DNA of 63,307 bases, counting the filler, from Basidiobolus ranarum (taxonomy: Eukaryota): assembly GCA_040143965.1 (NCBI GenBank). It is 10 parts of 10 records of this genome, joined end to end, with 100 filler letters (N's around TTAATTAATTAA, not from the genome) between each part and the next. Parts side by side here need not be neighbours in the genome. Positions count along the whole stretch, not along the records: positions 44,426 to 50,655 come from JASJQH010008246.1; positions 50,756 to 56,983 come from JASJQH010008247.1; 8 more parts are not named here. One strand, given 5' to 3'. Shown here in pieces: positions 16,833 through 61,906 of this stretch. The notes beneath the pieces were generated by a model, which was not told the DNA's origin, ran no database searches, and worked only from the letters and a program-made list of their open reading frames with translations. Both the position numbers and the translations under genes were made by a program. The stretch's first letter is position 1. Every line of letters begins with the position of its first letter.

Positions 16833-17075
16833 TGTTGGTAACCCAATATTTTAATGTAGCAATACTAGATTGGGTACCTTGGTACAAGCCAGCATAATAT
16901 CTCCAATATAATCATTGTGTCCAATCAAGAGTTATAAGACCTAGCCATGGTTATTAACAGATTGCTCCAGATAGTGTGTTAGCAGGCTGGATAGATTGGC
17001 ACAATCTGACCTGGTCAAATGGAACAAGTCTAATGTATTGAGACTTAACCAAGGTTTTGACTGCGTTGCCTAACA
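16833..17075. mobile_element. Probable solo LTR (separate family)
   Basis: TGTTGGTAAC...GTTGCCTAACA imperfect inverted termini, flanked by TGGAT / TTGAT (4 of 5 match as a TSD). Confidence 0.45.
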
Positions 17076-17116
17076 TTGATTGAGGCCCACAAAATGATTC
17101 TCCTCTATAATTTCCT

Positions 17117-28974: not shown

Positions 28975-29303
28975 TGTTGAAGTATTTTGAGAGTTTGTTG
29001 GAAGTGGTTTGGAGAACTAGAAGAATTGATGGTTTTCACTTATTGATTTGTTGAATAGAAAGTTGACATTCATAGTTTTGTCGAGGTGTAAGCAAGCAAA
29101 TGTGTAGAATGTGTTAAGGAAGGTCCTAGGAACATGTGTGCAAAGTTTGGGGCTTCTAGCACAAGTTTGAAAATCTATATATCTGAGAACTTCTAAGTAA
29201 ATTCCAATTGAGAATAATGGATAATATCTTAGTGAATTATAAGATAACTAAGTACTAAGCTATATATGACTATATAGGTGTTTAGGCAATGCTATTTTCA
29301 ACA
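28975..29303 (-). mobile_element. Solo LTR, family A (Copia), with 5-bp TSD ATATA
   Basis: TGTTGAAG...TTTCAACA flanked by ATATA (28970-28974, 29304-29308); same family as the 3' LTR at 43712-44059. Confidence 0.9.
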
Positions 29304-31647: not shown

Positions 31648-31747
31648 NNNNNNNNNNNNNNNNNNNNNNNNNNNNNNNNNNNNNNNNNNNNTTAATTAAT
31701 TAANNNNNNNNNNNNNNNNNNNNNNNNNNNNNNNNNNNNNNNNNNNN

Positions 31748-36660: not shown

Positions 36661-37008
36661 TGTTAAAGTATTTTGAGATCCTGTTGGAAGTGGTTTGGAG
36701 AATTTGAGAAATTGGTGGTTTCACTTATTGATTTATTAAGTTGAAAGTTGACATTCATAGTTTTGTCAAGATGTAAGCTAACTGACATGTAAGACTTGCT
36801 AACACAGATACTAGAGGCACGTATGCAAAGTTTGGGGCTTTTAGCACAAGTTTGAAAAATCTATATATCCAAAAACTTGTCAGTTGGTAAAAATATTTGA
36901 AAAAAATCCCAATATTAAATTATGGATATCATCATAGTTCAATCTAGGATAACTAAATACTAAGCTATATATGACTATATAGATGTTTACACAATGCTAA
37001 TTTCAACA
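36661..37008 (-). mobile_element. LTR family A copy
   Basis: TGTTAAAG...TTTCAACA, colinear with 28975-29303; no matching TSD. Confidence 0.8.
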
Positions 37009-40423: not shown

Positions 40424-41555
40424 TTAACAAAAGAATGACCAGCTAGTGCAACGATTCATGAAATTACAGCACTCTCCTTCTGGACAAACGATTACTGGGT
40501 TACCCGAATCTCGACAGTTACCATTGGTAGAGATTATCGTGGTAGTTGGTGGAGGTACTGTTGTGGTGGGAGGAGGAGACTTCGTAGTGGAATTGCTGGA
40601 GGTAGAGCTACTAGTCTTGGTAGGAGTCACTGTAGAAACATTAGGTGAAGTTGTTGAGCTGGTCGTCTTGCTGGTGGTAGATTTGGTAGTCCTCTTGCTT
40701 GTAGTGGGCTTGGTAGTGATCGTCTTGCTTGTAGTGGGCTTGGTGGTGGTCGTCATGCTTTTAGTGGGCTTGGTGGTGATCGTCTTGCTTGTAGTGGGCT
40801 TGGTGGTGATCGTCTTCATTGTAGTGGATTCGGTGGGTTTATCAGTAGGACCAGTTGAATCAGCAGTTGAGCTTACAGACTCAGTGGGAGCGACGGTAGA
40901 TTCGTTTGGGTCAATGGTCGAGTTGAAAGATGCAGTGCCGTTATCAGTAGGGCTGGGAGACTCAGTTGAATCGGCAGTTGAGCTAGCGGATTCAGACGGT
41001 ACGTCAGTAGGACTGGAAGACTCTGTTGAATCAGTTGTTGAGCTTGCAGACTCAGTGGGGGTTACTGAAGATTCAGTAGAGTCGGTTGGGTCAACTGTTG
41101 AGCTTGCTGATTCAGTAGGAATGTCAGTAGGACTAGAGGTCTTAGTTGAATCAACAGTTGGGCTTGCAGACTCAGTGGGAGTCACGGTAGACTCAATAGA
41201 CCCGGTTGGGTCAACCGTTGAGCTTGCGGATTCGGAAGAAATGCCAGTAGGACTAGAGGACTCAGTTGAATCAGCTGTTGAGCTTGCTGACTCAGTGGGG
41301 GTTACTGAAGATTCAGTCGAGTCAGTTGGGTCAACCGTTGAGCTCGCTGATTCAGTAGGAATTTCAGTAGGACTAGAGGTCTCGGTTGAATCGGCAGTTG
41401 AGCTGGCGGATTCGGTCGGTAGGTCAGTAGGACTGGAGGACTCTGTTGAATCATCAGTTGAGCTTACAGACTCAGTGGGAGTCACGTTAGATTCAGTAGA
41501 GTCGGTTGGGTCAACTGTTGAGCTTGCTGATTCAGTAGGAATTTCAGTAGGACTA
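40424..41555 (-). CDS. Ser/Thr/Pro-rich mucin-like cell-surface protein with C-terminal Cys (CBM18-like) domain; N-terminus missing
   Basis: 60-bp/20-aa repeats (TESASSTVDPTDSTESSVTP / TESASSTADSTESSSPTDVP), 30-bp TTKPTTSKTI repeats, and C-terminal NGNCRDSGNPVIVCPEGECCNFMNRCTSWSFFC*; the repeat breaks mid-unit at 41555/41556. Confidence 0.8.
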
Positions 41556-43281
41556 TCCACCATCCACTTTGGAAGGCATTAACATGCCAGAAACTAACAC
41601 AAATAATGATGAAGCATTGATCATTTTACCAGATGTGTTCCTTTGTGGCAATAGGGCAAGTGAAGAGATTATAATCCCGAAGTATGTAGTAAATCAATGG
41701 TTGGCCAAGGTCAACCTAAACACCATCAAGACCATCAACATCCAAAATGGCTACCTTGCCCACTATTGAACCACCCTCCACTAGATATTTGGATAGAGTT
41801 TTTACAACAAGGGAATCACAGGCAGAACACCATAATGATTTGTATTTGACCATGAGTACAAGCTATGTAGTTGCTATACAGGTAATGACAAGTAATAATG
41901 TTGCAATATTGCAATTGATGCAGCATTTGGAAGCTACTAGGCAACAGTTAGAGATTTACTCATTAATGATACAAGACCTTCAGAATGCCGCACCTGAGGT
42001 ACAGCAACATGCTGTTCCCCTATCCATTGTCACATGGGATTTCGATCAATCCCACACCACACATATGAACATCACTGTGACAATCTAGCAGAGCAGAATA
42101 TATGTTCGACCATTAAGCCTGCAGAACAACCTGAAATTGCTTGGGCACATGAAAGTAGAAATCTCACAGGAGAACCGGCAAACCAAACAACTTTGATTGT
42201 CAGATCTGCCATCACTTGCTCTGCTGATGATTGTTTAACTTTTTGGAAACTGTGCAGAATCCTGCCCAAAATCACCTGAATTGGAGACAATTGTGGAAAA
42301 CTAAACACCAGGCATTACTCTGAAGGTTCTTAACTTATTTCATGTTGCTTATCTGGGGTCTTTGCAAGAAATGGCAATTGGGCTAGTATAGGCCTATTCA
42401 TGAAGCATATCAAAAATGTACATAATTATTAATTTGGAAAAGTGAGAAAAGCAGGTGAAGAAGTACTCAAGGAGCAGGAAGTTAGTAAACCCAAGGGAAA
42501 AGCAAAGGAGCCAGTGAGTTTAGGCTCTACTGTTGCACTTACCAAATTCTTCAAACTATTACAAAGAACTGCATTTCCAGAGTCAGATATACTTGCAAAA
42601 AAGCTTTATTTCACCAGGGAACCAGGTAAACCACTTCAAAGAGTGCTAAATTTGGAAGTTTTTCCAACACCTGGCTCCTCTCAACAATCCAAAACATTGG
42701 CAAATAAAACTCATAGCACCCCAACCTCAACTGGTACTTTTGAAAGTGTTGAAGTTAGCCCCAAAGCTAAAGGCAAGCAAAAAGCCACACAAAACTGCAA
42801 AGCGCCCTCAGTTGTGTCACACTACAAGGGTGTATGAAAATGGTAAAAGTGCCTGAGGAGTATTTTCAAAAGTATGAAGAGAAATTCACAGCACAAGTAT
42901 GCAGAAAGTGGCTTCCGAAGAAGAACATTCATCTTGACTTTCAGTCTGGTTTTCATCATGCAGCTAGCTTGAAAGAACTTAATACAGAGTGGCACAATAT
43001 AGCAGGGACAATATTGCAACATATCCACCAGATAGCTGGAAGAATGTTGATTCAGCAACATTAATACCATGGTAGGCTTTGATGGAGATGTTGATACAAA
43101 CTTGTATTGGATATGAACTAAACCTTGGGTATGAAGAACTCTATAAGAATATTCAGGAGAATATATTGAAGAAACTAGGAATTTCAAGATGACAAATTAG
43201 TATTCAAGTGATAAATTTGTAAAATATGAGTTACATTTTTTGTACATATGTTGAACTATAGTTTTCTGAGATTGTAGCCAA
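41556..43281 (+). mobile_element. Decayed family U element (unknown ORF)
   Basis: Fragments PETNTNNDEALI, MTSNNVAILQLMQ, MGFRSIPHHTYEHHCDNLAEQN, FPESDILAKKL, QVCRKWLPKKNI and LNTEWHNIAG are colinear with 47484-49110. Confidence 0.85.
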
Positions 43282-43711
43282 TCATGCACAGCTACTTTGT
43301 TACCCTACCCTCCACCATTGTATTAACATTGCTGGATCAACATTCTTCCAGCTATCTGGTGGATACCTGGCAATATTGTGCCACTCTGTATTGAGTTCTT
43401 CTTTGATATCTGCATAATCAACACCAGACTGAATGTCAAGTTTAATGTTCTTTTTCCGGAGCCACTTTCTGCATACTTGCAATGCACTTTTGACTTCAGA
43501 CTTTTATAATGCTCCTCAAGCACTTTGTCTATATCATACTTCCTTGTAATGGGAAATTACTGAGGGTGCTTTGTGGTGTTTGTGTGGCTTTTTGCTTGCC
43601 TTTAACTTTGTGGCCAATTTAAGCACTTTGAAAAGTACCAGTTCAGATTGGAGAGCCATCAGTTTTATTTGCCAATGTTTTAGCCTGTTGAGAGGTGCCA
43701 GGTGTTGGATA
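43282..43711 (-). mobile_element. Inverted partial family U copy
   Basis: QVCRKWLRKKNIKLDIQSGVDYADIKEELNTEWHNIARYPPDSW on the minus strand; interrupted by an LTR at 43712. Confidence 0.8.
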
Positions 43712-44325
43712 TGTTAAAGTATTTGGGAGCCTGTTGGAAGTGGTTTGGAGAATTAGTGGAATTTGTGGTTTTCACATATTGATTTATTGAGCAGAAAGTT
43801 GACATTTATAGTTTTGTCAAGATGTAAACAAACTAACATGTAGAATATGCTAAGGAAGGTCCCAGGAACATGAGTGCAAAGTTTGGGGCTTCTAGCACAA
43901 GTTTGAAAAATCTATATATCTGAGTACTTCTAAGTTGGAAGAAAAATTCGAAGTAAATTTTAATTGAGAATAATTGATAATATCTTAGTGAGTTATAAGA
44001 TAACTAATTACTAAGTTATATAGGACTGTATAGGTGTTTAGGCAATGCTAATTTCAACACTCTCCCTCAACTAAATAGTCATATAAACTAATCCTAATAA
44101 AGGTCTAAATTTCTCAAATTTCTGTCTAGCTAATGGTTTGGTTAATATATCAGCAATCATATCTTCTGTAGAACAATAAGTTAAGTCAATAAACTTATTC
44201 TCTATAGTCTCTCAAATGAAGTGATGCTTAATATCTATGTGTTTGCTTCTATTATGAAACGTGGGATTTTTAGCTAATTTGATACAACTTTGATTATCTT
44301 GAAATATTGTAGTTGGTGAATTTTG
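43712..44325 (-). mobile_element. 3' end of a Copia element: RNase H end, PPT and 3' LTR family A (43712-44059)
   Basis: Minus strand reads IFQDNQSCIKLAKNPTFHNRSKHIDIKHHFI...DMIADILTKPL, then the purine tract GAGGGAGAG immediately before TGTTGAAATTAGC. Confidence 0.9.
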
Positions 44326-44425: not shown

Positions 44426-45997
44426 AGCTTGGTAGAATAGTTCCCATCTCCTGATTAATGCTTCAACTTTAGTTCCATCAAAGAAGAGAGTTCCTGGGGA
44501 TCTGCATAATGGTAGTATTGGGGTTGACATGTTGAATGAGTTGTAGTAGTAGTCCTTCTTGTTGTAAGTCTTCAGAGAGATTCAGTTGAACCCCCCCTGT
44601 TGGGTGCTAAATGTAGTTGTTTTTGGGTGTAAGCAGCATCTATAACTGCAATATCCTGAGCATCTTGTGAGGTGTCCAAAGGGTGTGATAACCATGGTTG
44701 AATAACTCTGGGATGTACTGTAATATGGGTCTGTCTCTTGCCTCTTGGGTCTTTGTGAAAAGGAATCAAGCCTCTAGAAATGCCTAAGGACTGATAAATC
44801 ACAATGTAATGTCCTGCTTTCTGTTGAATAATATGCTGGTGCTGGACAAAAGAATATACTGGCTTCAAAGTCCTTTGAGAATGATCAGATAAAAAGGGTA
44901 TATCTAATCAAAAACCACTGTAAACTCAGCCAGCAGGGTCTTGAACAAGGATGCACTAGTAGTGATTTATCTAAGAATATAAAAAGTTCCTTTCCCATGC
45001 AGATAAAGCTAGGGAAACAAATATAAAGTATCAGAAATATAACATCTGCCTCTCAGTACTTCCTTTGAGCTGGTCAAGTCCTTTCTAGTCACCAGTAGCC
45101 TGTAACTGCCTCTAGTAGTCTCTCTTGGGCTTCCTTTTCAAAGGTCTTGTAAGCAGAGATGAAAATAAGAGGCAATCACAAGTAGTAATTATTAGTTGAA
45201 AATCAGGATGATTTTTATTTGAAAAGATATGGCTCTTATTGATACTTTTATGATGGTAGATATGATTACTAATGAGAATTTCTGGAAAGTTCTGGATAAT
45301 TCTATTGGTGGGGATCTGGGGTTATGATATCATCATAAATCATAAGATTAGATTCCATGGAATATTCCAGAAGGTTATAGAATGATCCAGAAAGTCATGG
45401 AATATTCCAGCAAAATCAAGTTTTGATTGGTCAAGACTCAATCAATCATCAAATATTCCAAGAATCTTGCGGAATGTTCCGGAAGATTGTAGAATTTTCC
45501 AGAAAATATTAGGGCTGATGTGGGTTAATACTGATAAATCTGGAATAATGGGGGATAATAGTAATGGTGTGATATGATTGGCTAGAAAATATGGGTAAGT
45601 CAAATATGGATAATAAAACAGAAATTGTGCAATAGTAATGATATGAGCTTGGAGTGGCAATAAGTCAACCTGCCAATTGGTAGCAATGCTGCCCCACTAC
45701 ACCAACAAAATCAAGTTTAGATTAGTCAAAACTCAATTCAATCATCAAGTATTCCAAGAATCTTGTGGAATATTCTGGAAGATTATAGAAGTTTGCAGAA
45801 AATAATAGGGCTAATGTGGGGTAATACTGATAAATCTGAAATAATAGGGGATAATACCAATGCTGTGATATGATTAGCTAGAAAATATGGGCAAGTCAAA
45901 TATAGATAATTAAATACAAAATGTGCAATAGTGATGATATGATCTTGGAGTGGAAATAAGTCAATCTGCCAGTGGGTAGCTAGGCTGCCTCACTACA
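44426..45997 (-). mobile_element. Probable Ty3/Gypsy-type remnant: LTR with a tandemly duplicated ~295-bp 5' part, plus gag/protease-like decay
   Basis: Minus-strand TGTAGTG starts at 45701 and 45997; direct duplication 45411-45705 / 45706-46000; possible LTR end GTTACA at ~45101; GTKVEALI protease-like fragment near 44460. Confidence 0.5.
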
Positions 45998-46411
45998 ATG
46001 CCAAGGCTACAACAATAATACTGCATATCTTGATCAATCTCTCCAAGAAGTCTGTCTTGCAGCTTTCCTAGAAATATCATCTGATTATCACACAAACAAA
46101 AGTAGTCCAAGTTATATAGGTATCTACTCTATGTCCATGGATTGGGTTTTGTTGCTGTTAATATGCTCAAACAATGCAAAAACACATGAGCACATTGAAA
46201 AGAGGCCTTTGTTGGAAGGTTAAAGTAGTCTGGAGACTCCTTAACCCGTTGCATTACATCAATGATTATTATGGCCAATACATTGCTAATCAAATTGACA
46301 TACAGTAATACTGAATATTTCACATGGAGCATCATTTCACTGCAGGTGTGCTCCATGCAGAACTCCCAAAATGCATATCAAGGGCCTATAATCTCTAAGT
46401 AATGTGAAAGA

Positions 46412-46693
46412 TGTTGAAAGTCTGGTGACTTGTGGTATAAGCAGTAATTCCTAAAGAGGAAAATATTGAGTATGGTGACTGCATCTAAACACAAAGTCTA
46501 AGGCCAATCAGTTACTTGTAAAGCTTAAATGCCAAAGTACCATACATTGACAGATTAGGTTAAGGTTTGCTAGCAATATGGGCATAGCATACAAGGACTG
46601 GTAGCTCAGTGGTTGGAGCACCTTGCTAGAGTGAAGGAGGTCCCCAGTTCAAATCCTGGCCAGACCAATAATTCTCCCTAAGTAATTTCAACA
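46412..46693. mobile_element. 282-bp solo-LTR-like insertion carrying a tRNA-like cassette, TSD AAAGA
   Basis: TGTTGAAA...TTTCAACA; AAAGA at 46407-46411 and 46694-46698; the empty site is visible in the paralogue at ~54187-54200 (GTGAAAGATGCCGC). Confidence 0.92.
46595..46667 (+). tRNA. tRNA-like (pseudo-tRNA/SINE-head) sequence, nominal anticodon AGA, inside the mobile unit
   Basis: 73-nt cloverleaf spacing: GGACTGG/CCAGACC acceptor, A-box TAGCTCAGTGG, CCTTG-CTAGAGT-GAAGG arm, 5-nt variable loop, B-box GTTCAAATCC; several stem mismatches. Confidence 0.7.
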
Positions 46694-47231
46694 AAAGATG
46701 CAGCAGGGAATGTATTGAATACCAACAGAGATTCAGTCTATCTTCTTTAAACCGGTAATAAAGTTTTCAGATTCAATTACAAAATCTTTGCATAGCTGCT
46801 GTATCTGCTGAGATCAGCCAATGTGAGTTGATGCTTTAAAAATATATTAACAATATCCACAAATAACTCCCAATGTTGCCAATACATATCAGGCAGAAAT
46901 ATTTTACAGATTCCACTTGAATGTATACAAAGCCAATACTTCCAGTCTTTGCATTTGAATAAATGCCTAGTTCAGTGGATGTTGATTGGAGTCCTGGTAA
47001 AATATGATGGTATCTTGACCTTTTCAAGCATATTCCCAATCAAATCAAACTTTGATCCTATCTCAAATGGCCCATTCATATTGAATTCTTCACTATATAG
47101 CAGAGTAAGAGGTATTGAAATGTTGTTGAGTAGTAAGTGCATAGTGCCTGATGCAAAGCTCTGGTTCCAGCTGATCCCCTTTAGCAATAATATCTTAGGC
47201 TTATGACTCATACCAACTTTGATGTTAGACT

Positions 47232-49130
47232 TACCCTAACAGAAATTTGAGCATTATTATTGTATGAAAAGCATCAGAATTTTAATCCATTTGGGTTGAT
47301 CATTAATTACCATCATATAATCATCAAGTTAGGTTTGATTTTGATAAATTTTTTCAGTTTCAGGAGTGAAATTTTGAGATCTCACAAAATAGTTGTGCAT
47401 GATGGGCTACATTCTCAGAGAACTATGGAAGAACACTTGTGCAAACAACATAACTCAAATTTTACACAATTATCACTAGAACACTAATTTCTCACCTTTG
47501 AAATCCATAGTTTGTTTGATATATTCTCCTCAATATTTTTATGGAATTCTGCACACCCTAGGTTTAACTCATATCCAACAAAAGTTTTTATCAATATCTT
47601 CATCAAAGCCCACCATTGTATTAATGTTGCTGAATCAAAATTGTTACAGCTATCTGGCAGATACCCTGTGATATTGTACCACTCTGTATTAGGTACTTGC
47701 CAGGTATCTGCACCATCAACACCAGACTGAATGTCAAGTTGAATGTTCTTCTTCTGAAGCCACTTTGTGCATACTTGCACTGCATTTTTCCCTTTAAACT
47801 TTTGAAAATACTTGTCAACCACTTTTATTATTTTCATACATCCTTGTAGTGTGACACTACAGAGGGTGCTCAGATGTCTTTGTATGGCTTTTAGCTTGCC
47901 TTTAGGTTTGGGTCTAATTTCAATAATTTGAAAAGCACCAATAGAGGTTGGAAAGCCATGAGTTTTATTTTCTGGTGTATTGGCTTGTTGAGAGGTGCCA
48001 GGTGTTGGATAAACTTCCAAATTAAGCAGTCTACCAATTGGTGTACCTAGTTTGATGGTCAAATTAAGCTTTTTAGCCTGTATATCTAACTCTGGAAATG
48101 CAGATCTCTGTATGGTTTGAAGAATTTAGTAAGTGGGACAGTAGAGCCCATACTCACTGCCTTCTTTGCTTTTCACTGGGGTTTACCAACTTCTTGCTCC
48201 ATGAGTACTTTTCTAGGTGCTTTTCTTTCTTTCCCAAGTTGATATTATGTACATTCCTGAGATTTTTTAGCAATAGGCCTATACTAGCCCAATTTTCATT
48301 TGCTTGAAAAAACCTATGATAAGCCACATGAAGTAAGTCAAGGACCTTCAGAGCAGTGCCTGTTTTCTGGTTTTTTGACAACTGGCTCAAATTGTGGAGA
48401 TTTTGGGCAAGTATGTGCACAGTTTCCAAAATGTTAAACCTTTCATCTTCACAGCAAGTGACAGCAGCTCCGACATTCAGAGTCTTTTGGTTTGCCAGTT
48501 TTCCTGTGAGATTCCTACTTTCATGTGCCCAAGTAATTTTGGGTTGTTGCATAGGCTGAATTGTCCAACATGTATTCTGATCTGCTAGATTGTCATGGTG
48601 ACACCCATATGTAAGGCATGGGATTGATTGAAATCCCATACGAGAATGGATGGAGGGATCAGCTTGTTGCTCTAGCTCAAGTACAGCATTCTGAAGGTCA
48701 TGTATCATTGTTGAGTGACTCTCTAACTGTTGACTTGTTTCTTCAGATTGCTACATTAATTGCAATATTGCAGCATTTTTGCTTGCCATGGCCTGTATAG
48801 CAACTTTGTAGTTTTTACTTATGATAGCATACAAATCATTATGGTTTTCTGCATGCAATTCCCTTGTTGTATTACTTCTAACCAAATTTTCTATGGAGGG
48901 TTGTTCAATAGTTGGCAAAATAGCTATTTTGGCAGTTGATGGTCTTGATGGCATTTCTGTTGAACTTTGCTCTACTATTGATTCACTACATAATTGGGGG
49001 ATTACAATCTCTTCACTTGCACTATTGCTGGAAAGGAACATATCTGTTAAATTAATTAATACCTCATCATTACTTGAGTTAGTTTCCAGATGACTCATGT
49101 GTGATACCATCTCAACTCTGAGGTTTTTGT
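47232..49130 (-). mobile_element. Family U element, most complete copy of the unknown ~540-codon ORF (49110-47484)
   Basis: ORF pieces 48751-49110, 48154-48708 and 47484-48062; the terminus TACCCTAACAGAAATT at 47232 interrupts the transposase remnant. Confidence 0.85.
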
Positions 49131-49135
49131 AGGCA

Positions 49136-50655
49136 CACCCTAACAGAAATTTGAGGATTGTTAATGTAGGAAAACCACCCCAACTTTAATCTATTTGGGA
49201 TTGACCATTTACTTACTGTCATAAAATTGACAAGTTAGATTTAATTTTAATCAATTTTTTTAGTTTCAGGAGTGAAATTTCAAGATCTCACAAAAACTTG
49301 CCCATGATTGGCTACAATCTCAGAGAACTATGGATCAACACATGTGCAAAAAATGTAACGCAAATTTTACATAATTACCACTTCAATGCTAATTTGTCAC
49401 CTTTGAAATCTCTAGTCTCTTTGATATATTCTCCTGAATATTATTATAGAGTTCACCATATTCAAAGTTTAGCTCATACCCAACACAAGTTTGTATCAAT
49501 ATCTCCATCAAAGCCCACCATTGTAATAACATTACTGAATCAACATTGTTCCAGCTATCTGGTGGATACCCTGCAATCTTGTGCCACTCTGTATTAAGTT
49601 CTTCCCAGATATATGCATGGTCAACACCAGACTGAATGTCAAGTTGAATGTTCTTCTTCTGAAGCCAATTTTTGCATACTTGCATTCCATTCTCCATGCA
49701 TACTTTTGAAAATACTCCTCTAGCACTTGGACTATTTTTGAATGTCTTTGTAATGTGATACTACTGAGGGTGCTTTGCAGTGTTTGGGTGGCTTTTTGCT
49801 TGCCTTTAACTTTGGGGCTAATTTCAACAATTTGAAAAGCACCAGTAGAGGTTGGAAAGCCATGAATTTCATTTGCTGGTATTTTAGCTTGTTGAGAGGT
49901 TCCAGGTGTTGGATAAACTTCCAAATTTAGCGCTCCTCCAACTGGTGTACCCAGTTCCATGGTGAAATTAAGCTTTTTTGCCAGTATATCTGACTCTGGA
50001 ATTGCAGATCTTTGTAATGGTGTGAAGAATCTGATAAGTAGGACAGTAGAGCCTAAACTCACTGGCTCCTTTGCTTTTCCCTTGTGTTTACTAACTTCCT
50101 GGTCCTTGAGAACTTCTTTAGCTGCTTTTCTTACTTTTCCAAGTTAATAATTGTGTACACTTTTAAGATGTTTCATGAATAGGCCTATAATATCCCATTT
50201 GCCATTTGCTTGCAAAAGCCCAGGATAAGCCACATGAAAGAAGTCAAGAACCTTCAGAGTATCACCTGGGTTTTGGTTTTTTCACTATTGGCTCAAATCC
50301 AGGTGATTTCAGGCAAGATTCCGCACAGTTTCCAAAATGTTAAACCACTCATCATCAGAGCAAGTGACAACAGCTCTGACATTAAGAGTCTTTTGGTTTG
50401 CCGGTTTTCCTGTGAGATTTCTACTTTCATGTGCCCAAGCAATTTTGGGTCCTTGTGTAAGCTTAATGGTTCAGCACATATTCTGCTCTGCTAGATTGTC
50501 ACGGTGATGTTCATATGTATGGTGTGGGATTGATTGAAATCCCATACAAGAATGGATGGAGGGATCAGCTTGTTGCTCTAGCTCAAGTACAGCATTCTGA
50601 AGGTCTTATATCATTGTTGGGTGACTTCCTAACTGCTGACTAGTTGCCTCCAAAC
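49136..50655 (-). mobile_element. Family U element, second copy abutting the 5' side of the first
   Basis: Terminus CACCCTAACAGAAATT at 49136; ORF pieces 49389-49697 and 49532-50062; cut by the contig end. Confidence 0.85.
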
Positions 50656-51369
50656 NNNNNNNNNNNNNNNNNNNNNNNNNNNNNNNNNNNNNNNNNNNNT
50701 TAATTAATTAANNNNNNNNNNNNNNNNNNNNNNNNNNNNNNNNNNNNNNNNNNNNTGGTTACTGTAGAAAGCAACCTGCTGTGCAAAGCCTAGTGAATAT
50801 CAACCATGATAAAGGCACAAGATGAACTTTAGTTTTTCCTTCTGAGGCCAATGATTGTGCTCTACCTCAATGTTTTGGTAACACTGCTGAAAGTCAAGAT
50901 ACTGTGGAGTTACTACAGCTCTATGACCCAACTGATGTGGGCAGAAATTCCACTTTGGTTGAAACAGTGAGGTGTGGGACAGAAGTGTTAGCTCAAATAT
51001 TCGGTAATAAAGCTTTATCCCACTACAATAGAAACCTTTATTATCCTACTATGACACAGGGTAGAATATCAAGCTAAAAAAAGGATAAAGAATACGGTGT
51101 GATCTTGGATGGTGCCAAGGCCAGAAGCTTTTTTGCTAGCCAAAAGGGTTGCTTATAAAAAGAAATAGCTGAGATTACATGCTCTGAATTGATGCATGAG
51201 TATAAATTCTATGATTAGGTGGCTTAGCTTTGAAGTGCCAATAAGATCACTACTATGCAATAGTGGCTTTGAAGCTTCAAACACATTGGCATCAAATACT
51301 GTTGCAGCTCTGAGCAAAATGTGAAGAGAATTCATTGGTTGGTTACAAATGTTAGCACTACTTGTGTGA

Positions 51370-53969
51370 GCATCTTGAGGTCTTAAATTCCAGTAGTTTT
51401 TGTTCTAAACATGAAATTAAGCTACAAACTACTGAACCTTATACTCCACAGCAAAATGGAGTTGCAGAACATGCTAATAGGACCATAGTGGAGATGGCAA
51501 GATCAGTGTTACATGATCAAAAGTTAGATTGCCAATATTGAGCTGAATCTGTCTCCACTGCAGCCTATATCAAAAACAGATGCCCAACAAGATTGATACA
51601 AAAATCTACATCTTAAAAGCTCTATATGGATCAAACCCAAGTGTGGATCATCTCAGGTTCTTTGGTTGCACAGCATATTGCCTAATTCCAGCTCAAAAAT
51701 GCTCTAAATTGGAATCTAAAAGCGGTAGATGATTATTTCTGGGCTACTGTGATGGATCTAAGGCCTACCAACCACTTGATATCAAAATTCAGAAGTAAAT
51801 TAATTGCAGAGTTGTGATTTTAGATGAAAAGCAAATTTTACACCTTAAATCATAGTTCTTGATCCAGAAAACACAATCAGGACTATTCTAGAAGTATCTG
51901 GCAAAATTCCAGCTGTATCTGAGCCCTATTCAGGCAAAAATCCAGTCAGAATCAAATCAGACAATGATTGAGGACCCAGGAGATCATCCAGAAGGAGTAA
52001 TAAGCCAGGGAACTGGTGGAACACTTGCAATCATGATGTATATACTTATTCAAAATTCTGTGATGAGTCACAGACTCTAGATCAAGCTCTGGTGTATCCA
52101 GAATCAAAATGATGGAAAATGCAGTGTCTGATGAGTTTTCTTCACTTCAGGACAATAAAATGTGGGTTTTAAGTCCTCTACCATCAGGGAGAAAGCCAAT
52201 AGGGTGCAATTAGGCATACAAAGTCAAAAATTGAGCCAACAGAAGCATATAAAGGTACAAAGCAAGATTAATTATAAAGGTTCTTCCCTGACTCTAGGAG
52301 AAGATTTAACAAACCTTTGCTCCAGTAGCTAAGTTGAGCTTCAGTAGATCAATCCTGCCACTCAGCTATCCATAACCTTGATTTACATCAAACGGGTGTA
52401 AAAACAGCCTTTCTGAATGGAAATCTAGAAGAGATTTAGATGTAGCAACCAGATGGATTTGTAGGCTCAAAACACCCTGATATGGTCTGTATACTGCAAG
52501 AATTGCTCTGTGAACTCCAGTAAGCACCTTGGGCATAGTACAGCAAGATTTGTAATAACTGGAAATCCAAATATGCACAGCAGATCACAGTACTTCCATT
52601 AACACAACTGGAAAAAGGAACCTTATCTTGGCACTAGATGTGGATGACCTGATCAAAGCCACAAATAATCTACAAGCACTTAATCAGGCAAAACCAGATT
52701 ATCAAGCCAACTTCAGAAGATATTGGTGAATTCAGTTATTCTCTTGGATTCAACATCAAGAGAGATAAATGCAATCAGAAATAATGCTGAATTAGTCAAA
52801 AATATATCTTAAACATGCTAAAATGCCTAAACATGAAGACTAGCAAGCCTGTATCAACACTAATAGATCCTAATGTGAAATTGATCAAAATTTTATCTGA
52901 TTTGGCCCAAAATCACTCAAATCAAAGCTAGAAGTTCACTTATCAATCCATGGTGGGTAGTTTATGTACACAATGGTTATAATACATCCAGACATTGCTA
53001 TGGTAGTGGGAACTGTGAGCCAATATCTCAAAAATCCAGAATATGAGCACATAACTGCAGTGAAGCAAATATTCAAGTATTTGAGAGGTACAGTATATCT
53101 AGTTCTGTAACACTGCCACTCCTGATACACAAATTTTTGAATATTACAGTGATGCAGACTGGGGAAAAAACCTTGTTGATAGAAGATCAACAACTAGGAA
53201 CACTTTTCTCTATGGTAATGGAGCCATAACTTGGAATAGTAGAAGCAACTAACCATTGCACTTTGCACTATGGAGGCTGAGTATATGGTTGCCTCTGCTA
53301 CTACACAAGAAGCTATGAGGCTAAGGAAGTTATTTCTAGAGTTAGGGTACTTGTAAAAATGTGCTATTTTTGTATTTGAAGATAATCTAAGTTGTATTTC
53401 ATCAGCTAAAAGCCCTACTTATCATGGTGGAACAAAGCACATAAATGTAAGGTATCATTATATTGGAGAAGCAATAGATAATGATATAATTGAACTTGTC
53501 TATTGCCCTACTGAAGAAAAGATAGGTGACATCTCAACCAAATCTTTAGCTAAAGCACAACTTGAATTATCAAGATATAGGTTAGGTTTAAGAGAGATAC
53601 AAAATATTTAGTTGAGTGGGAATGTTGAAATTGGGTAAATAGCATTTCATTGCTTAGTAGTTAGTTTATTCCTATTCTGATTATTTAGCACTCTGCCATT
53701 CAAAAACATGTGTTTATTGCTCTAATATATAGAAATATTGATAGGATCATATTTACCAATTTTCACTGTTTTCTCATAACTTCTCCAAATCACTTCAAAT
53801 TTTTACCCATGCTTAAGAGGCATGCTTGTCAAGATCTAAGCATGTCCATTAGTCCTATTTCATAGCAAACTACTAATAGGATAAATTCAAATCAACAAAA
53901 CTTAAGAGTACAATTAACAAATCCAAATCTTGTCCAAAACACTTCCAAATCCCTCAAACACTTTTATCA
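51370..53969 (+). mobile_element. Decayed Ty1/Copia element: integrase, RT, RNase H, PPT and 3' LTR family B (53623-53969)
   Basis: PYTPQQNGVAEHANRTIVEMAR integrase motif; RT/RH remnants; GAGTGGGAA PPT followed by TGTTGAAATTGG...CTTTTATCA. Confidence 0.92.
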
Positions 53970-54635
53970 ATGAGCACATTGAAAAGAGCCCTTTGTTGTA
54001 AGGTTATATATTTAGGAGTGTCTGCAACCCCTTGCATGACATCCATCACTGATTTTGCTGACACATTTTTAATTAGATTAATAAACAGTAATATTGATGA
54101 TTCCACATGGAATCTCATTTCACCACTGGTGAGCCCCACTGGGAACTTCCACAATGTATACCAAGGGCCTATAATCTCTAAGCATTGTGAAAGATGCCGC
54201 AGTGAATGTATTGAATACTGGCATAGATTCAGTTTTTTTTTCTTTAAACTTGTAACAAAGTTTTTCATTACAATTACATAATCTTTGCAAAATTATTGTA
54301 TCTGTCTTAGATCTGCCAATGTAAGTTGATGCAATGAATATTTATTAACAATAACCATAAACAACTCCCAATGCCGCCAATACTTATCAGGCAGAAATCT
54401 TTACAAGATTTCACTTGAATATATGAATCCCACACTTACAGTCCTTTGATTTGAACAAATGCCTATACAAGTGGATATTTATGGGAGTCCTAATAAGATA
54501 ATATGGCAACTTGATGCTTTCAAGCAATTTTCCAATGAAATCAAACATTGATCTAATCTTAAATGGTTCATTCATATTGAATTTTCAACTGTATAGCTTA
54601 GTAATTAGTATTTGAATGTTGTTGAATAGTAAGTG

Positions 54636-54917
54636 TATTGAAAGTCTGGTGACTTGTGGTACAAGCAATAATTCCCAAACAGGAAAATATGGAGCATGGT
54701 GACTGCATCTGAACACAATGTCTAAGGCCAATCAGTTGCTCGTATAGCTGAAATGCCAAAGTACCATACATTGACAGACTAGGTTAAGGTTCCCTAGCAA
54801 TATAGGCATAGCATACAAGAACTGGTAGCTCAGTTGTTAGAGCACCTTGCTAGAGTGAAGGTGGTCCCAGGTTCAAATCCTGGTTGGACCAATATTTCTC
54901 CCTAAATAATTTCAATA
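54636..54917. mobile_element. Second 282-bp solo-LTR-like insertion with tRNA-like cassette, TSD AAGTG
   Basis: TATTGAAA...TTTCAATA; AAGTG at 54631-54635 and 54918-54922; the empty site is visible in the paralogue at ~47131-47150 (TAGTAAGTGCATAGTGCCTG). Confidence 0.92.
54819..54891 (+). tRNA. tRNA-like sequence (second copy), nominal anticodon AGA
   Basis: D-arm GCTC/GAGC, identical CCTTGCTAGAGTGAAGG arm, perfect T-stem CCAGG-TTCAAAT-CCTGG; degraded acceptor stem. Confidence 0.7.
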
Positions 54918-56230
54918 AAGTGCATGGTGCCTGCTAGGAGGCTCTTGCTCCAGCTCTTCCCCTGTGGCATTATCATCTTATGCTTATGGCTAATATCAAG
55001 TTTGATGTTAGGCTGACTATTTGGTGAATAGATATCAGTGAGCATGTTGATATCTGGCTAGAATCTTGATGGTAAAGACAGGAAGTTCAGTGTTGTATTT
55101 GGATAGTTATAATATGCATGCCTGATAGAGTAAACTTCATTGATTTGACAAAATCTACACCACATAAGTGCATTGTGTACACTAAAACCTCCTAGTTTAT
55201 GCATGGCAGGAATGCCATCAATACATACAATGATAGTACCTTTAGAGAAATATTCACCCATCTGAACCCCAGCAGATAACCATTCCAATTCTGCTATCAA
55301 AGGCATCAAGAAGCCATCTATAAGCACTGGTGATTTAGGTCCTGATATGATGAATAGTATCAAATTATTATGACTCTGATACCATCCAGAAGGATGAAGA
55401 TTGAAAATTAATAGAAAATATTGGCTATCAAGCCCTTCCAACAGTAGATTTGTTTGGTCAGAAACGATCCAGAGGCAATGCAAATGCATGCTCATGTGTG
55501 TTCTCAAAGAAACCTGGATTTTTCAGGTGTTTGTATTGCTGTCCATCAAGAATACTGCTAATTCCATCATACTGATGGTGAGTGCTTTGGTATTGGATCA
55601 ATGATCTACATTTGGGAGATTTCCTCAAAACTCTAAAACTTCACAATGGGAATTAACAGTATGCCAGCCAAATGGGAACAATATTTACCTGATTCAGTGA
55701 TTGCCAATTGAGCACAAACAGTACATGACTTCAGTGTATTCAGATCACTGATGAAAGCTATACAACCATTTGGACATGAGGGTAGTTTAATTACTGAAGG
55801 AATACAAGTCATATGATAGACAAGTGCTTTCTGCTTGCACCAGCTATGTGGCAGGTAACAGGTGCCAATCAACTGAGGTAGAAATGTAAGAAAACCAATA
55901 AACACCTGATTGCCAAAATAGGATTGAACTCTCCACTCCACAATAATCCAAGCTGCTTTCTTTACTATAAGTGTTATGAATGGACCAATTATTACCTATC
56001 AAAAAGAGTTCACAACCAAACTATTGTCATCTTCTGTAACTTCTGATGTACTACCATCAGCACTGAATAACCAAGGTTCCCATCATACATCAAGTCCTCA
56101 AAGTTGCCAAGACTTACTGGTTTAACAAAAGTTGAATTTGTACCAACATCATTCTGGTCATACAACTGTGGTAACTCCATGGTATCTTGATTTTTGGCAG
56201 TTTTACCAATACTGTAAGGCTAAGCAAAGC

Positions 56231-56983
56231 CACCCTAACAGAAATTAGGGGATTGTTATCATGGGAAAACCATCCCATTTTAATCCATTTTGGATTGACT
56301 ATTTACTCACCATCATAAAATTTGCAAGTTATATTTAATTCTAAGTACTTTTTTCAGTTTCAGGAGTGAAATTCCAAGATCTTGCAAAACAGTTGTACAA
56401 AATTAGCCACAATCTCAGAGAACTATGGATCAACACATGTTCAAAAAAAATAACTTAAATTTTACACATTTATCACTTGAATTCTAATTTGTCACCTTTG
56501 AAATTCCTGGTTTCTTTGAAATATTCACCAAAATATTTTTATAGTGTGCTACATACCTAAGGTTTAGCTCATATCTGACATGAGTTTGTATCAGTATCTT
56601 CATCAAAGCTTACCATTTTATTATCATTGCAGAATCAACATTCTTCCAGCTATCTGGCAGATACCCTGCCATATAGTGCCACTTTGTATTAAGTTCTTCA
56701 CAGATATATGCATGGTCATAACCATACTGAATGTCAAGTTCAATGTTCTTCTTCTGAAGCTACTTCCTGCATGTTTGTCCTGTGTTTTTCTCATAATACT
56801 TTTGAAGTTACTTCTCCAGCACTTCAACTATGTTTCTATGTCCTCATAGTGGGACACTACTGAGAGGGTTTTGCAGTGTTTGTGTGGCATTTTGCTTGCC
56901 TTGAAGTTTGAGGCTAATTTCAACACTTTGAAAGGCTCTGGTTGAGGTTAGAGAGCCATGAGTTTTATTTGCTGGTGTTTTGG
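56231..56983 (-). mobile_element. Family U element 3' part with terminus CACCCTAACAGAAATT
   Basis: Homologous to 49136-49890; cut by the contig end. Confidence 0.82.
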
Positions 56984-57083: not shown

Positions 57084-57910
57084 GGCTACCAACATGCACC
57101 CTGTGTAAGAAACCTTGATGATACAAGATTGACAATTGGGTACACTTCTCTCTATGGTGATGAAGACATAACTTGGAATAGTAGGAAGCAACCAACCAAA
57201 GCACTTTCCACAACAGAAGCAGAGTATATGGCTGCCTCTGTTACTACACAAAAAGCTCCATGGTTGAGAAAGTTATTAACAGACTTAGAAACACATGCAA
57301 AAACATGCTATTACTGTGCTTGATGATATTCTAAGTCAAATCACATGAGCTAAAAATCCTACATTTCAAGATAGAACAAGACAAATATATATATTAGGCA
57401 ATGTTTTCTTAGAGAAGCAATAGAGAATGATAAAATTCAACTGGTCTATTGCCCGGCTGAAAAAAATTGCTGACATCTTGACCAAGCCTTTAGCTATAGC
57501 AAAACTTGAAACTTTAAGACATAAGTAATGTTTAAGAGAAATACAAATAATTAATTGAGTGGGAATGTTGAAGTTGGGTAAAAGCAACTCAATATTAAAT
57601 AGTTAGTTTATTTTTATTCTGATTACTTAGCACTCAACTCTGCCATTCAAAAATATGTGTTTATCGCTCTAATTAATAGAAATGTTAATTAGATCACTTT
57701 TCCCTATCTTTACTATTTTCTCAAATCTTCTCCAAATCATCTCAAATATCCACCCATGCTCAACAGGCATGTCTGTTTTGATCTAAGCATGCCCAACAGT
57801 CTGGTTTAGTAGTAAACTATGAGTAGCACTTATTCACTGTTAAGAAAACCTAAGTGTCTAGGTCACAAGTCCATGTGTGGTACCAAACAAATCCAAATCC
57901 ACTGTACACT
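57084..57910 (+). mobile_element. Copia RNase H end, PPT and LTR family B (from 57566)
   Basis: ITWNSRKQPTKALSTTEAEYMAAS; IADILTKPL; GAGTGGGAA followed by TGTTGAAGTTGG. Confidence 0.85.
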
Positions 57911-57944
57911 TTAGTTATTTATATGAGTCATTATGGGCTAAATT

Positions 57945-58930
57945 GTATGAAATTTTGATTTATTTCACATTGGGATCCATAGGGGCAAATACAGGCTTGC
58001 TATACTTATGTTGAGGCATTATATTATCCCCAAGATGTATCTGGACTGATTCAGCTTGATTTTCTACTTGGCTTTACTTCTCTTGATTTGGATCACAAGA
58101 AAATAACTCAAATCACCCATATCAGTCATCTGAAATTGCTTGATAAGCTACTTTTGGCCCATATTGGGGGCTTCTAGATCATTTGTGGCAATGATCAAGT
58201 CGTCACTATATAGTGCCAAAATAAGGATCCTATATCTGGTTGTTTTGATGTGAACATTGTAATCTGCTGTGAATATTTAGAACTCCAGTGATTCCAAATA
58301 GAAATCCATCTTGTTATACCATGTCCTGGGTGCCTGCTTGAGTCTATACAGCAATATTTGCAGCTTACAGAACCAATCAGGGTATTTTTAGTTGATAAAT
58401 CCATCTGATTATTCTACACAGCTCTCTTCTTCTAGAGTTCCATTCAGAAAGTCTGTGTTTACATTCCTTTGATGTAAATCAAGGTTATGGATTGCTGAGA
58501 GTGCAAGGATTGATCTGATGGTTCTAAACTTAGTGACTAGAGCAAAATTTTTATTAAAGTCCACTCCTGGAGCTTCAAAATAGCCTTTTTGAACTAATCT
58601 CACTGCATTGGTGGTTGAAGCCTTAAAACCCATGTATTGTTGTCCTGAAGTGGAGAAAACTCTGAATAGAATTTAGAAGCAGTCTCATTGGGCATCTGTT
58701 TCTGATATAAATTGCAATGGAGACATATACAGCTCAATATTAGTTATCTAACTTTTGATCATAAAACATGAATCTTATCATCTACACTATGGCCCTATTG
58801 GCACATTCTGCAACACTGTTTTGTTGAGCAGTATCAGGTTCAGTAGTTTGTTGCTTCATGTATTGTTAGGAACAAAAAGCAGCCAAGTCTTAAGAGCAGT
58901 AATTTCAAATTTATCACTACTAGTACCCTT
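57945..58930 (-). mobile_element. Internally deleted Copia RT/integrase remnant
   Basis: RLVQKGY...PGVDFNKNFALVTKFRTIRSILALSAIHNLDLHQ...FLNGTLEEE. Confidence 0.8.
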
Positions 58931-58969
58931 ATTTTATGTGCTGATTATTAATCTCCATTGTTTTGTTGT

Positions 58970-61010
58970 GCTTGAATAGAGCTAAGGCTTTAGCTTTTGA
59001 TTTGGGAAAGAATACGCAATATATATCTTGTACAAATATTTTGCTTAGATAACATCTCAAAGTTAAAGGGTCTAACCAATGTCAATCTTATCCCCCCTAT
59101 CACTGTCCAAGATACCATATCTGGCTTTTATTTACTCATATCAGGCCTCTCCTTACCTTCTGACATGTTTGTATCTAGTCTTGTCACATTTTAGAGAGAT
59201 GCAAGGATTCTGGGAACAATAGGGATTATAAAAAAAGCAAAAACATTTTGTCAAAGATTTATTTATGGCAACATTATATGATGTTGCACAATATCTGGAG
59301 AGATTGTGAAGAAGAAAGTTTCAAAGAATATTCTTGATAGCACCAATATAGACACTATATATTCTTCTCATATTGTGGAAGCATTGGAATTTCTATCAGA
59401 GATATATCACTCATATAAAAGTTTACCTATTTCTTTTTCCAGTTTACTTAGAGATAAAAAAGGCTTAGTAACTATAGTAGAATATGGGGCAAAAGGGACA
59501 AGAGAATAACATGAAATAAATATAGAGTTGGGACAACAGTATATATTTGGAAAAAAAGTTGAAGAGGGTTTTATAAGAAATTCTGATGTTAAATGGTTAA
59601 ATCCACTAGAATTTTTTGTCCACCAAATGTTTGCAAGAGAGGGAATTATAAATATCTGAAATAATCTTGACATCACAGGCTATTTGAATAGATGATCCAG
59701 ACAACTCTTGGCCAATGTTGAAGTTAAATATAATGGCACAATAGGTAGCCTAAATATGGTATCAAGCTTTTAAGAAACTCCTCTGCAGTATTAACCATTT
59801 TCTTCATCTATACAAATAACTTGTCCTAATTTATAACTGTGCCCTCTACAAATTATATCTGCAAAAACAAGTTTGGACAGGTACCAATTGGTGTTTGTCT
59901 ATCACAAAGTAGCTTCAACTCTTCCATATTGGCCACACTGTGCTTGAGGACTATCTGGGTAATTATAGACAAGAGTTTCTTTCAGAGTCCTATTATATGA
60001 AAAATGGTTGACTATATGATAATCATATGCCAGTTCCAGTATATCCTTATTACACTGCATCAATTGCATTATTGCAGCATTATTGCTTGTCATGGCTTTT
60101 AAACAGTTTCATGGTTCAATTGTTGAGATGCAACACCATTTGACATTTCATTGTTTTACCAGCTACAGACTTTACAATGGTGGTAGACATCTTGTGAACA
60201 GTACCTTGTCTTCTGGTAATATATGATATCTCTTTTCATCTAAATGTAAATCAAATATTTGGATATCTACCAGGTTTTGCAACAGATCATCAGAGTATGT
60301 TTTACCATTCATGACTAGTACATTTTCCAACATATACTTTAATACTATATTTTTGATATATGAAACACATGTCTCAGACTATTGGACAAATCTTAATTTT
60401 ATATCCTCTGGATTTAAGTTTGCCCCAAATAATTGTTTTGTGATAAAATTTGTGGGAAAAGGGGTGGTTAGGTATGACCTGCCTTTTGGATTATCTATTT
60501 TCGGTGTAGACTTTTGGGGTATCATATTACTAGGAGAGGCAATTATTGGATCCAATAACATATCATGAATTGATTCTTTGGTACATTCTGATACCCTGCT
60601 AATGAAAGTCATAAACTCTGGATCTTTCCTAAGAATGTCTAAAGTAAAGCATGCATCCAAATATCTGGAATATACAATCCATGTAAGCTGTATTCTTGTT
60701 AGACTGCTGTTTTTTCTTAGCACCTTAGTTTCATATGGTGTCAACAGCTTTTCCTTTTCTGGCAAACCTCCATTTAGTAAAATAGGTCTGGACACAATTT
60801 TACATAGTCCTCTTCTTTAGAATTAATTATAAAATATTTTAATATTCAATGATATCTGTCATACTTTGTGATAGACAACTCCATCTAGGTTTTTATAGAC
60901 TCTGGTATGTAAACATTTTCCTGCTTTACCACACTTGTTCTCTAACAAATTAGTAATATTTCCAAATCAAGTCTTGACATATATAATGCAACCAGAAGAA
61001 TTAGTTGAAC
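58970..61010. pseudogene. Fragmented, compact two-barrel (beta/beta'-like) RNA polymerase of probable linear-plasmid or viral origin
   Basis: + strand ~59460-59750 reads through stops as IVEYGAKG...LGQQYIFGKKVEEGFIRNSDVKWLNPLEFFVHQMFAREGIINI*NNLDITGYLNR*SRQLLANVEVKYNGT, matching Rpb1/beta' regions F-G. Weaker beta-like and beta'-like pieces lie on the minus strand. Confidence 0.78.
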
Positions 61011-61906
61011 AAAATCACCCTGATCAGATCTGTAAACTGCAAAATTGCAATATGGACCCCAGCAAGCATGCAGGGCTTGGTACAACAAGTTAGATACCTG
61101 TTTGGAGTCACTAGAGGCCCAAAGATTCATTGCAGAGCATAGTTTTTACATTAAAGCAGCTGGTAATTGGATCCTTATGATTACACTCTATGTGTATGAC
61201 TTGATCCTATTCATAAATGACCTAGAAGCACTTGATCACACAAAAAGCAGCCTATATAACCAGTTGCAGATGACAAATACTAGTAAATTCAGTTTTTTCC
61301 TTGGATATTAAATCATAGGAGATAGACCCAATCCAAAAATCATGCTAAATCAGTCCCGATAAATTGTAGACATGCTAAAATGCTTCAGCATGGAGAATGG
61401 CAAGCTTGTACCAACACCAATGGATCTCAATATGAAAATAAATAAAATTTCAGCAAATATGGTACAAAATGAATTAAAACAAAGCCAGGAGTTCTCTGAG
61501 CAATCCATGTTGTGTATTTTGATGTATCAATTGGTTGGAAAATGTCCAGACATTGGTGTAGCAGTGGGAGTTGTGAGCCAATAACTCAAAGTCCAGGATC
61601 TGAGCAAAATATCATAGAAAAAAAAATTGGATACCTGAGAGTAATTGTAGATCTGGTTTTAGATTATTCTGGCACTCCTGATGTGCAAAATTTTGATGGC
61701 AACAGTGAAGCAAACTGGAGAAGAAAACTTGATGATAGAAGATTACCAACTGGGCACACATTTCTGTGTTGTAATGTTGCCTTAACTTGGAACAGTAGGA
61801 TGCAACATACCATTGCACCTTCCACTACACAAGCATAGCATTTGGCTACCTACACAAGAAGCAAAGTAGCTGAGAAGGGTACTTACAGACTTAGGATACA
61901 TGCAAC
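61011..61906 (+). mobile_element. Decayed Copia RT/RNase H remnant
   Basis: RAWYNKLDTCL...ITLYVYDLI...; CPDIGVAVGVVSQ; interrupted by an LTR at 61907. Confidence 0.85.

Follow-up and report, generated by a model that had tools for sequence, protein, structure and literature searches.

Introduction

Helenus, the described element kind that comes closest to the subject of this study, is a terminal-repeat retrotransposon in miniature (TRIM) with tRNA-derived sequence in its long terminal repeats (LTRs), and it has been grouped with Cassandra and Ajax as TRIMp3 (Kojima 2024, PMC10886601; here and below we refer to the available part of that paper). We compared with it a 282-bp unit carrying a tRNA-like cassette, two copies of which lie in a stretch of 63,307 bases from the fungus Basidiobolus ranarum; "the window" hereafter means this whole stretch. 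A Helenus element consists of two LTRs and a short internal part with a primer-binding site (PBS) plus a polypurine tract (PPT), and measures 311-1263 bp as a whole (PMC10886601). Its cassette lies in sense orientation, from which it can promote the element's transcription, and carries the box A motifs TRGCY and YGG and the box B motif GGTTC (PMC10886601). Fungal Helenus elements make target-site duplications (TSDs) of 5 bp and have PBS regions in common with copia elements, which mobilise them, and some Helenus families persist solely as fragments and as solo LTRs flanked by 5-bp TSDs (PMC10886601). The isotype assigned by tRNAscan is frequently discordant with the anticodon, and in rusts Helenus copies make up most of the predicted tRNA-Ser-AGA, Thr-AGT and Ala-AGC "genes" (PMC10886601). 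The LTR cassette is not complementary to the element's own PBS, which argues against a role as self-primer, and the origin proposed for Helenus is the insertion of a tRNA-derived short interspersed nuclear element (tRNA-SINE, SINE2) into the LTR of a TRIM (PMC10886601).

The fungal hosts of Helenus given in the available part of the paper are Pucciniales and Agaricales (Agaricus, Coprinopsis) in its Table 1 and Amylostereum in its text, from a screen that was seeded from Repbase LTRs and extended only to relatives of positive genomes (PMC10886601). Mucor, Rhizopus and Mucoromycota have no mention in that part (PMC10886601), and a 2026 meeting report, as far as its text was available, only restates the Helenus finding. 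In the literature available to us, PMC11105155 included, we found no report of Helenus or TRIMp3 in Basidiobolus or other early-diverging fungi, and the supplements of PMC10886601 may list more hosts. Here we describe the two copies from B. ranarum, which we interpret, with modest confidence, as solo LTRs of one LTR-retrotransposon family bearing a decayed tRNA-derived segment, Helenus (TRIMp3) being the closest described kind.

Results

Two independent insertions of a 282-bp unit

The window is made up of ten pieces of about 6.2 kb each, joined by spacers of the form N44-TTAATTAATTAA-N44. Copy 1 of the unit lies in piece 8 (44426-50655) and copy 2 in piece 9 (50756-56983). A first-pass annotation of this DNA had claimed that the 282-bp unit is mobile and was inserted twice independently, that its two copies on different contigs have inverted termini and different 5-bp TSDs, and that each of the two paralogous host sequences shows the empty site of the other. 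Our analysis bore out all of this (Table 1). The copies aligned without a gap and differed at 29/282 positions, and the likeness between them broke off sharply at both ends of the unit. The inverted termini extend over 8 bp only (TGTTGAAA/TTTCAACA in copy 1), and the outermost nucleotides, TG..CA in copy 1, read TA..TA in copy 2 through one transition per end. Perfect direct repeats, AAAGA and AAGTG, flank copy 1 and copy 2, respectively, and each of these 5-bp sequences occurs singly at the matching empty site in the other paralogue. With the units removed, the host versions in pieces 8 and 9 gave a colinear alignment. Because the empty sites are reciprocal and lie in diverged paralogues, the copies represent two separate insertions with true target duplications, later than the divergence of the host repeats. 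The reciprocal empty sites stand at different positions of the paralogues, which rules out segmental duplication.

Searches of the window returned these two copies alone. BLASTN with copy 1 found copy 1 itself and 54638-54915 (90.3% identity over 278 nt, E 7e-108), and the three remaining matches were no longer than 19 nt, with E values of at least 0.17. A profile built from both copies and run with nhmmer against the window recovered the same two, the next matches having E values of 0.34 and 1.5. Open reading frames (ORFs) within the units encode 46-61 aa, and none is common to both copies.

The copies are surrounded in pieces 8 and 9 by a repeat of about 1 kb with a flank identity of 77-79%. 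It had previously been labelled as transposase remnants, and this label held in part. A frame matching Pfam Transposase_21 (tnp2; E 3.6e-8) is located at 55061-55522(-), 44 bp outside the paralogous block of piece 9, but no credible Pfam match was found inside the host block among the ORFs tested. We ran 27 of the 47 stop-free ORFs of at least 35 aa in and around both host blocks against Pfam, leaving aside those within the units and, beyond 55060, most of those on the plus strand, and the adjoining Transposase_21 was the only match that these 27 gave.

Further repeats lie close by. A 296-bp unit in tandem (45407-45701 / 45702-45997, 87.8% identical) stands about 400 bp upstream of copy 1, and the 120-bp piece that adjoins this tandem (46001-46122) recurs inverted at 12714-12833 with 88.5% identity. 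A repeat of about 1.9 kb forms a tandem pair directly after the host block of copy 1 (47233-48739 / 49137-50645, 83% identical) and is also found in three further pieces (309-1597, 41590-43300 and 56231-56983). Its minus-strand frames of 144-213 aa had no Pfam match.

The unit carries a tRNA-like cassette

In both copies, as the first-pass annotation had reported, a 73-nt tRNA-shaped sequence with box A and box B lies 26 bp from one end of the unit. On its own strand the cassette occupies positions 184-256 of the 282, so that 26 nt remain on its 3' side, and the unit has no A-rich or simple-repeat tail. The Rfam tRNA model scored 41.8 bits in copy 1 and 40.1 bits in copy 2 (gathering score 29), and the Rfam scan, up to an E value of 10, showed neither another tRNA-like sequence nor a 5S rRNA match in the window. 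ARAGORN called a tRNA in copy 1 only, as Ser-AGA. The presence of the cassette in both independent insertions supports the earlier proposal that it moved as part of the unit.

The nominal AGA (Ser) anticodon without the long variable arm, also noticed before, was confirmed by the ARAGORN call and by a variable loop of 5 nt, and a loop this short leaves no room for the long arm of a serine tRNA. Pairs 3-70 (A.A) and 31-39 (G.G) of the Rfam cloverleaf are broken in both copies, and the cassette was therefore already a non-working tRNA in their common ancestor. With an incomplete cloverleaf, an AGA anticodon beside a 5-nt variable loop and an ARAGORN call in one of two copies, the cassette does not qualify as a functional tRNA gene. 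Of the box motifs described for Helenus, TRGCY was recognised in each copy, YGG in copy 1 alone and GGTTC in copy 2 alone. Nine positions of the cassette differ between the copies; three of these differences fall in loops, three turn a G-C or U-A pair into G-U, and three break a pair.

Unit ends compared with resident copia LTRs

Copia elements occur in the window, as shown by Pfam matches of open frames to RVT_2, the copia-type reverse transcriptase (pieces 3 and 10), and to an integrase SH3-like domain (piece 1). Their LTRs fall into two families, LTR-A and LTR-B, which start with TGTTGAAATT, as had been said of the other LTRs here, and end with ..CTTT(A/T)A(A/T)CA. The window contains 27 occurrences of TGTTGAAATT with no more than one mismatch, where 15.6 are expected, and the largest number in a shuffled sequence was 26. 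LTR-A, of about 330-350 bp, starts with TGTTGAAA(T/A)TAGC and ends with ACTT(T/C)AACA; it is represented by two copies given in Table 1 and a third at 36661-37008, all on the minus strand, and by one truncated and one diverged copy. One of the tabulated copies is a solo LTR with the TSD TATAT, and solo-LTR formation therefore occurs in the B. ranarum genome. The LTR-B copy is a 3' LTR, since it is preceded by an internal region homologous to the RVT_2-bearing copies.

The unit and these LTRs have in common the terminal motif TGTTGAAA(T/A)T...AACA or ATCA and the 5-bp TSD, and they are similar in size (282 bp against 329-351 bp). Past the ends, LTR-A and LTR-B have no sequence likeness to the unit, and unlike the unit they contain no tRNA-like part according to Rfam. 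The unit also displays the features of a solo LTR, namely TG...CA ends, a short inverted repeat and a TSD within the range of 4-6 bp, here 5 bp. The earlier statement that TG..CA ends with a 5-bp TSD fit the product of an LTR integrase is thus supported by a terminal motif that is common to two resident copia LTR families.

The first-pass annotation had further placed the cassette antisense at the U3 end of the LTR, an orientation that our comparisons did not favour. At the 5' end the minus strand of the unit agreed with the copia LTRs at 10-11/14 nt and the plus strand at 8-10/14 nt, whereas at the 3' end, compared without gaps, the plus strand did better (6-10/14 nt against 4-8/14 nt). The z-scores of whole-length alignments with LTR-A and LTR-B overlapped between the strands. 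These results indicate that the ends favour neither strand. Complementarity of the cassette to the 40 nt that follow five LTR-A and LTR-B ends reached 5-7 nt at the longest, which is the level of chance.

Table 1 Features of the 282-bp units, their insertion sites and the related repeats, in window coordinates (a dot in the strand column means that no strand applies)
Feature	Position	Strand	Details
Copy 1 of the 282-bp unit, probable solo LTR	46412..46693	+ (strand of the tRNA-like part)	ends TGTTGAAA...TTTCAACA
Left TSD of copy 1	46407..46411	.	AAAGA; single AAAGA at the paralogous empty site 54190-54194
Right TSD of copy 1	46694..46698	.	AAAGA
Cassette of copy 1	46595..46667	+	anticodon nominally AGA; 17/21 cloverleaf pairs
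Box A region, cassette of copy 1	46602-46612		TAGCTCAGTGG
Box B region, cassette of copy 1	46646-46656		AGTTCAAATCC
Copy 2 of the 282-bp unit	54636..54917	+	ends TATTGAAA...TTTCAATA; one transition per end relative to copy 1
Left TSD of copy 2	54631..54635	.	AAGTG; single AAGTG at the paralogous empty site 47135-47139
Right TSD of copy 2	54918..54922	.	AAGTG
Cassette of copy 2	54819..54891	+	18/21 cloverleaf pairs
Box A region, cassette of copy 2	54826-54836		TAGCTCAGTTG
Box B region, cassette of copy 2	54870-54880		GGTTCAAATCC
Empty site matching the insertion point of copy 1 (piece 9)	54190..54194	.	reads ...GTGAAAGATGCC...
Empty site matching the insertion point of copy 2 (piece 8)	47135..47139	.	
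Solo LTR of the LTR-A family	28975..29303	-	starts TGTTGAAAATAGC, ends ACTTCAACA; 5-bp TSD TATAT
LTR-A copy	43712..44059	-	starts TGTTGAAATTAGC, ends ACTTTAACA; purine-rich tract GAGGGAGAG just upstream
LTR-B, 3' LTR of a copia element, 348 bp	53623..53970	+	starts TGTTGAAATTGGG, ends CTTTTATCA; purine-rich tract just upstream
Repeat-rich, CpG-poor pieces	1-6255, 12709-18958, 44426-50655, 50756-56983, 57084-63307		

Other features of the window

The ratio of observed to expected CpG was 0.04-0.06 in the repeat-rich pieces 1, 3, 8, 9 and 10, compared with 0.40-0.75 in the gene-bearing pieces 2, 4, 5, 6 and 7. TpG and CpA are overrepresented in the repeat-rich group (1.33-1.46), and the 282-bp units contain 0 and 1 CpG. 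This depletion looks like the outcome of long-term CpG methylation and deamination aimed at repeats.

The open frames gave Pfam matches to TFIIS, forkhead, CotH, a chitin-binding domain and an acyl-CoA dehydrogenase of 482 aa, a picture that fits a eukaryote with few introns. The acyl-CoA dehydrogenase frame (9500-10948, minus strand) is intronless. Among the 120 matches listed for it, the best are two proteins of Basidiobolus meristosporus, with 92% and 88% identity, and the next, at 71-74%, come from chytrids and glomeromycetes. Its relatives carry a cytochrome b5 domain (PF00173), whereas the 482-aa frame had no Pfam match to PF00173 and is about 40 aa shorter; the cytochrome b5 domain may lie in an upstream exon. 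In piece 6, a CotH kinase-like frame (31700-32830, plus strand) adjoins a frame with a chitin-recognition domain (33112-33636, minus strand). The segment 40424-41582 is open for 384 aa on both strands, with internal tandem repeats at 40822-41555 and a high GC skew, and the Pfam matches of its frames were weak and below the cut-off only. At the start of piece 7, 38089-38150 (plus strand) gave a weak match to U6 small nuclear RNA (22.3 bits, gathering score 44, E 0.37), which may reflect a U6 gene truncated where the piece begins, or may be due to chance.

Discussion

The two copies are best read as two solo LTRs, because their termini and TSD length match those of two Ty1/copia LTR families in the same window. 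By this reading, a Ty1/copia-type integrase would have inserted the element twice, producing the TG..CA ends and the 5-bp TSDs, and recombination between LTRs would then have reduced each insertion to a single LTR, the tRNA-derived segment travelling inside it. Helenus offers a model for how such an element would work. If the family is of the Helenus type, the plus strand would be the sense strand and the cassette an internal promoter for RNA polymerase III (Pol III), with a resident copia element as the presumed helper. By analogy, transcription by Pol III would begin at the cassette of the 5' LTR, some 99 nt short of the LTR end, and the transcript would run through the PBS, the internal part and the 3' LTR to yield a template with a repeated end. 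Without a terminator in the LTR after the cassette, transcripts would be expected to end past the 3' LTR.

The unit is a probable member of this known kind and, by its likeness in described features, a candidate for Helenus proper. Like Helenus, it retains box A and box B motifs in a tRNA-derived segment that forms part of an LTR, and both have 5-bp TSDs (in fungi; AAAGA and AAGTG here) and frequent solo LTRs with TSDs. The partner of Helenus in fungi is of the copia type, and the window does contain copia elements that resemble the unit in their terminal motif and 5-bp TSD. In both, the cassette is not a credible tRNA, and the Ser-AGA anticodon without the long variable arm and the broken pairs agree with the description of Helenus. 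The present case differs from Helenus in that the copies seen here are solo ones, for which a TRIM structure would be presumed. It also differs in its host, Basidiobolus (Zoopagomycota), which lies outside the Basidiomycota listed in the available part of the Helenus paper.

Cassandra, the plant TRIM to which the first-pass annotation had likened the unit, resembles it, according to the part of the literature available to us, in having an LTR with a Pol III promoter cassette that stems from a small-RNA gene and in being non-autonomous with a borrowed integrase. It differs in its plant hosts and in its cassette, which is a 5S rRNA sequence with a Pol III terminator in the LTR, whereas the cassette here is tRNA-like and no T4 follows it. 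Identity with Cassandra was rejected, as no 5S match up to an E value of 10 and no T4 run after the cassette in the LTR were found. Ajax, a TRIM of nemerteans, has the TRIMp3 logic and a 5-bp TSD in common with the unit, but its promoter is partial and 5S-derived and its hosts are animals (PMC10886601, available part). The idea of a fungal tRNA-based analogue of Cassandra was thus sound, but it was not new, since it corresponds to Helenus / TRIMp3 (Kojima 2024, PMC10886601, available part).

Several results weigh against the Helenus-like interpretation. The first-pass annotation had named a cassette that diverges as fast as its flanks as a sign against it, and this is what the copies showed, with 9/73 positions (12.3%) differing in the cassette and 20/209 (9.6%) elsewhere (Fisher p 0.51). 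The cassette therefore shows no extra conservation, in a comparison to which two dead copies lend little power; because such copies mainly record neutral decay after insertion, this divergence says little about an active master. The cloverleaf is not the minimum-energy fold of the cassette, and its folding energy is ordinary (z 0.60 and -0.72). Paired LTRs, a PBS or a PPT belonging to the unit were not seen in the window, which holds two isolated copies only. Two exact words, a 23-mer lying outside the tRNA-like part and a 22-mer lying in the cassette, were each matched against collections of metagenome, prokaryote-genome and viral contigs. None of the six scans gave a match, which says little, as these collections are poor in fungi and the match had to be exact. 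There is no Pol III terminator 3' of the cassette inside the LTR. A slight point on the other side is that neither copy has a T4 run on its plus strand, as read-through by Pol III would require, but some 35% of shuffled sequences lack one as well. Finally, were the minus strand the sense strand of the LTR, the cassette would point outward and could not drive the element, and it would more likely be a passenger.

The last point leads to the most serious rival, in which the copies are solo LTRs of an ordinary copia element driven by RNA polymerase II, or of a large non-autonomous element, and a fragment of a tRNA or tRNA-SINE, once picked up by the LTR, is carried along in either orientation, perhaps antisense near the U3 end as the first-pass annotation had it, and plays no part in transcription of the element. 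We regard it as rather unlikely. It predicts the same integrase signature, it agrees with the equal divergence of cassette and flanks and with the two stem pairs broken in both copies, and the minus-strand 5' end is slightly closer, by 1-2 of 14 nt, to the starts of the copia LTRs. According to the available part of the Helenus paper, moreover, "not a few" Repbase LTRs have tRNA-like parts and only the TRIM-structured ones were named Helenus (PMC10886601). The preference at the 3' end is reversed, however, the plus strand being better by 1-2 of 14 nt, and the motifs of box A and box B can still be made out even though the copies have diverged by about 10% and the region is nearly free of CpG. 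The LTR elements with a whole small-RNA-like cassette that the same part of the paper describes are all short TRIMs of the Pol III type (PMC10886601).

A complete MITE-like DNA transposon (miniature inverted-repeat transposable element), mobilised by an integrase-related DDE transposase such as one of the Ginger2/TDD type and containing a tRNA-derived piece by accident, seems improbable to us. Such an element would account for two copies of 282 bp with inverted ends and for a window in which no second LTR was seen, and Transposase_21 DNA-transposon remnants are present there. TDD-4 and TDD-5 give 5-bp TSDs, and the TGTTG of the unit fits the TGTNR ends of Ginger (PMC2836005, available part). 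But Ginger2 has inverted repeats of 50-180 bp and TSDs of mostly 4 bp (PMC2836005, available part), whereas the inverted match of the unit covers 8 bp, and on this discrepancy in the inverted repeats we rejected a transposon or MITE of the Ginger2/TDD type. No transposase of the Ginger type appeared among the Pfam matches of the window frames, and the ends of the unit equal those of the resident copia LTRs. A tRNA-derived SINE, or a tRNA pseudogene copied with its neighbouring DNA by segmental duplication, has very little probability. The unit does have, like SINE2 elements, a tRNA-like part with box A and box B motifs, but that part lies near the 3' end of its own strand with 26 nt after it, and neither a tail of the type left by long interspersed nuclear elements (LINEs) nor an A-rich or simple-repeat tail follows. 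Both insertion sites have a TSD of exactly 5 bp, the ends are TG..CA, and duplication of a segment is contradicted by the reciprocal empty sites. The position of the cassette, the absent tail and the two 5-bp TSDs led us to reject a tRNA-derived SINE.

The two solo LTRs with a tRNA-derived segment, as we prefer to read them, probably belong to a published kind of element in a new fungal lineage, and the novelty lies in the host. The concept is not new, because the tRNA-bearing LTR, the 5-bp TSD in fungi, the partnership with copia and the solo-LTR remains were all published in 2024, and the finding opens no new kind of mechanism. It has practical consequences for annotation, as copies of the element inflate tRNA gene predictions: the sole ARAGORN "tRNA" in 62 kb is copy 1. 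In addition, the host repeats offer a yardstick for dating the copia-type integrations that the copies mark.

We suggest, tentatively and as a possibility short of an expectation, that Basidiobolus-like fungi (Zoopagomycota) harbour a TRIMp3/Helenus lineage of their own, Pol III-promoted and mobilised by copia, that is independent of those in rusts and mushrooms. If this is true, LTR copies would account for many of the "tRNA-Ser-AGA" calls in genomes of this kind, and LTR elements would have hit upon tRNA promoters as a solution repeatedly across the fungal tree. The finding would extend tRNA-bearing LTR elements (Helenus/TRIMp3) from Basidiomycota to an early-diverging lineage of fungi, and such an extension would speak for Pol III promoters having been captured by LTR retroelements repeatedly and independently.

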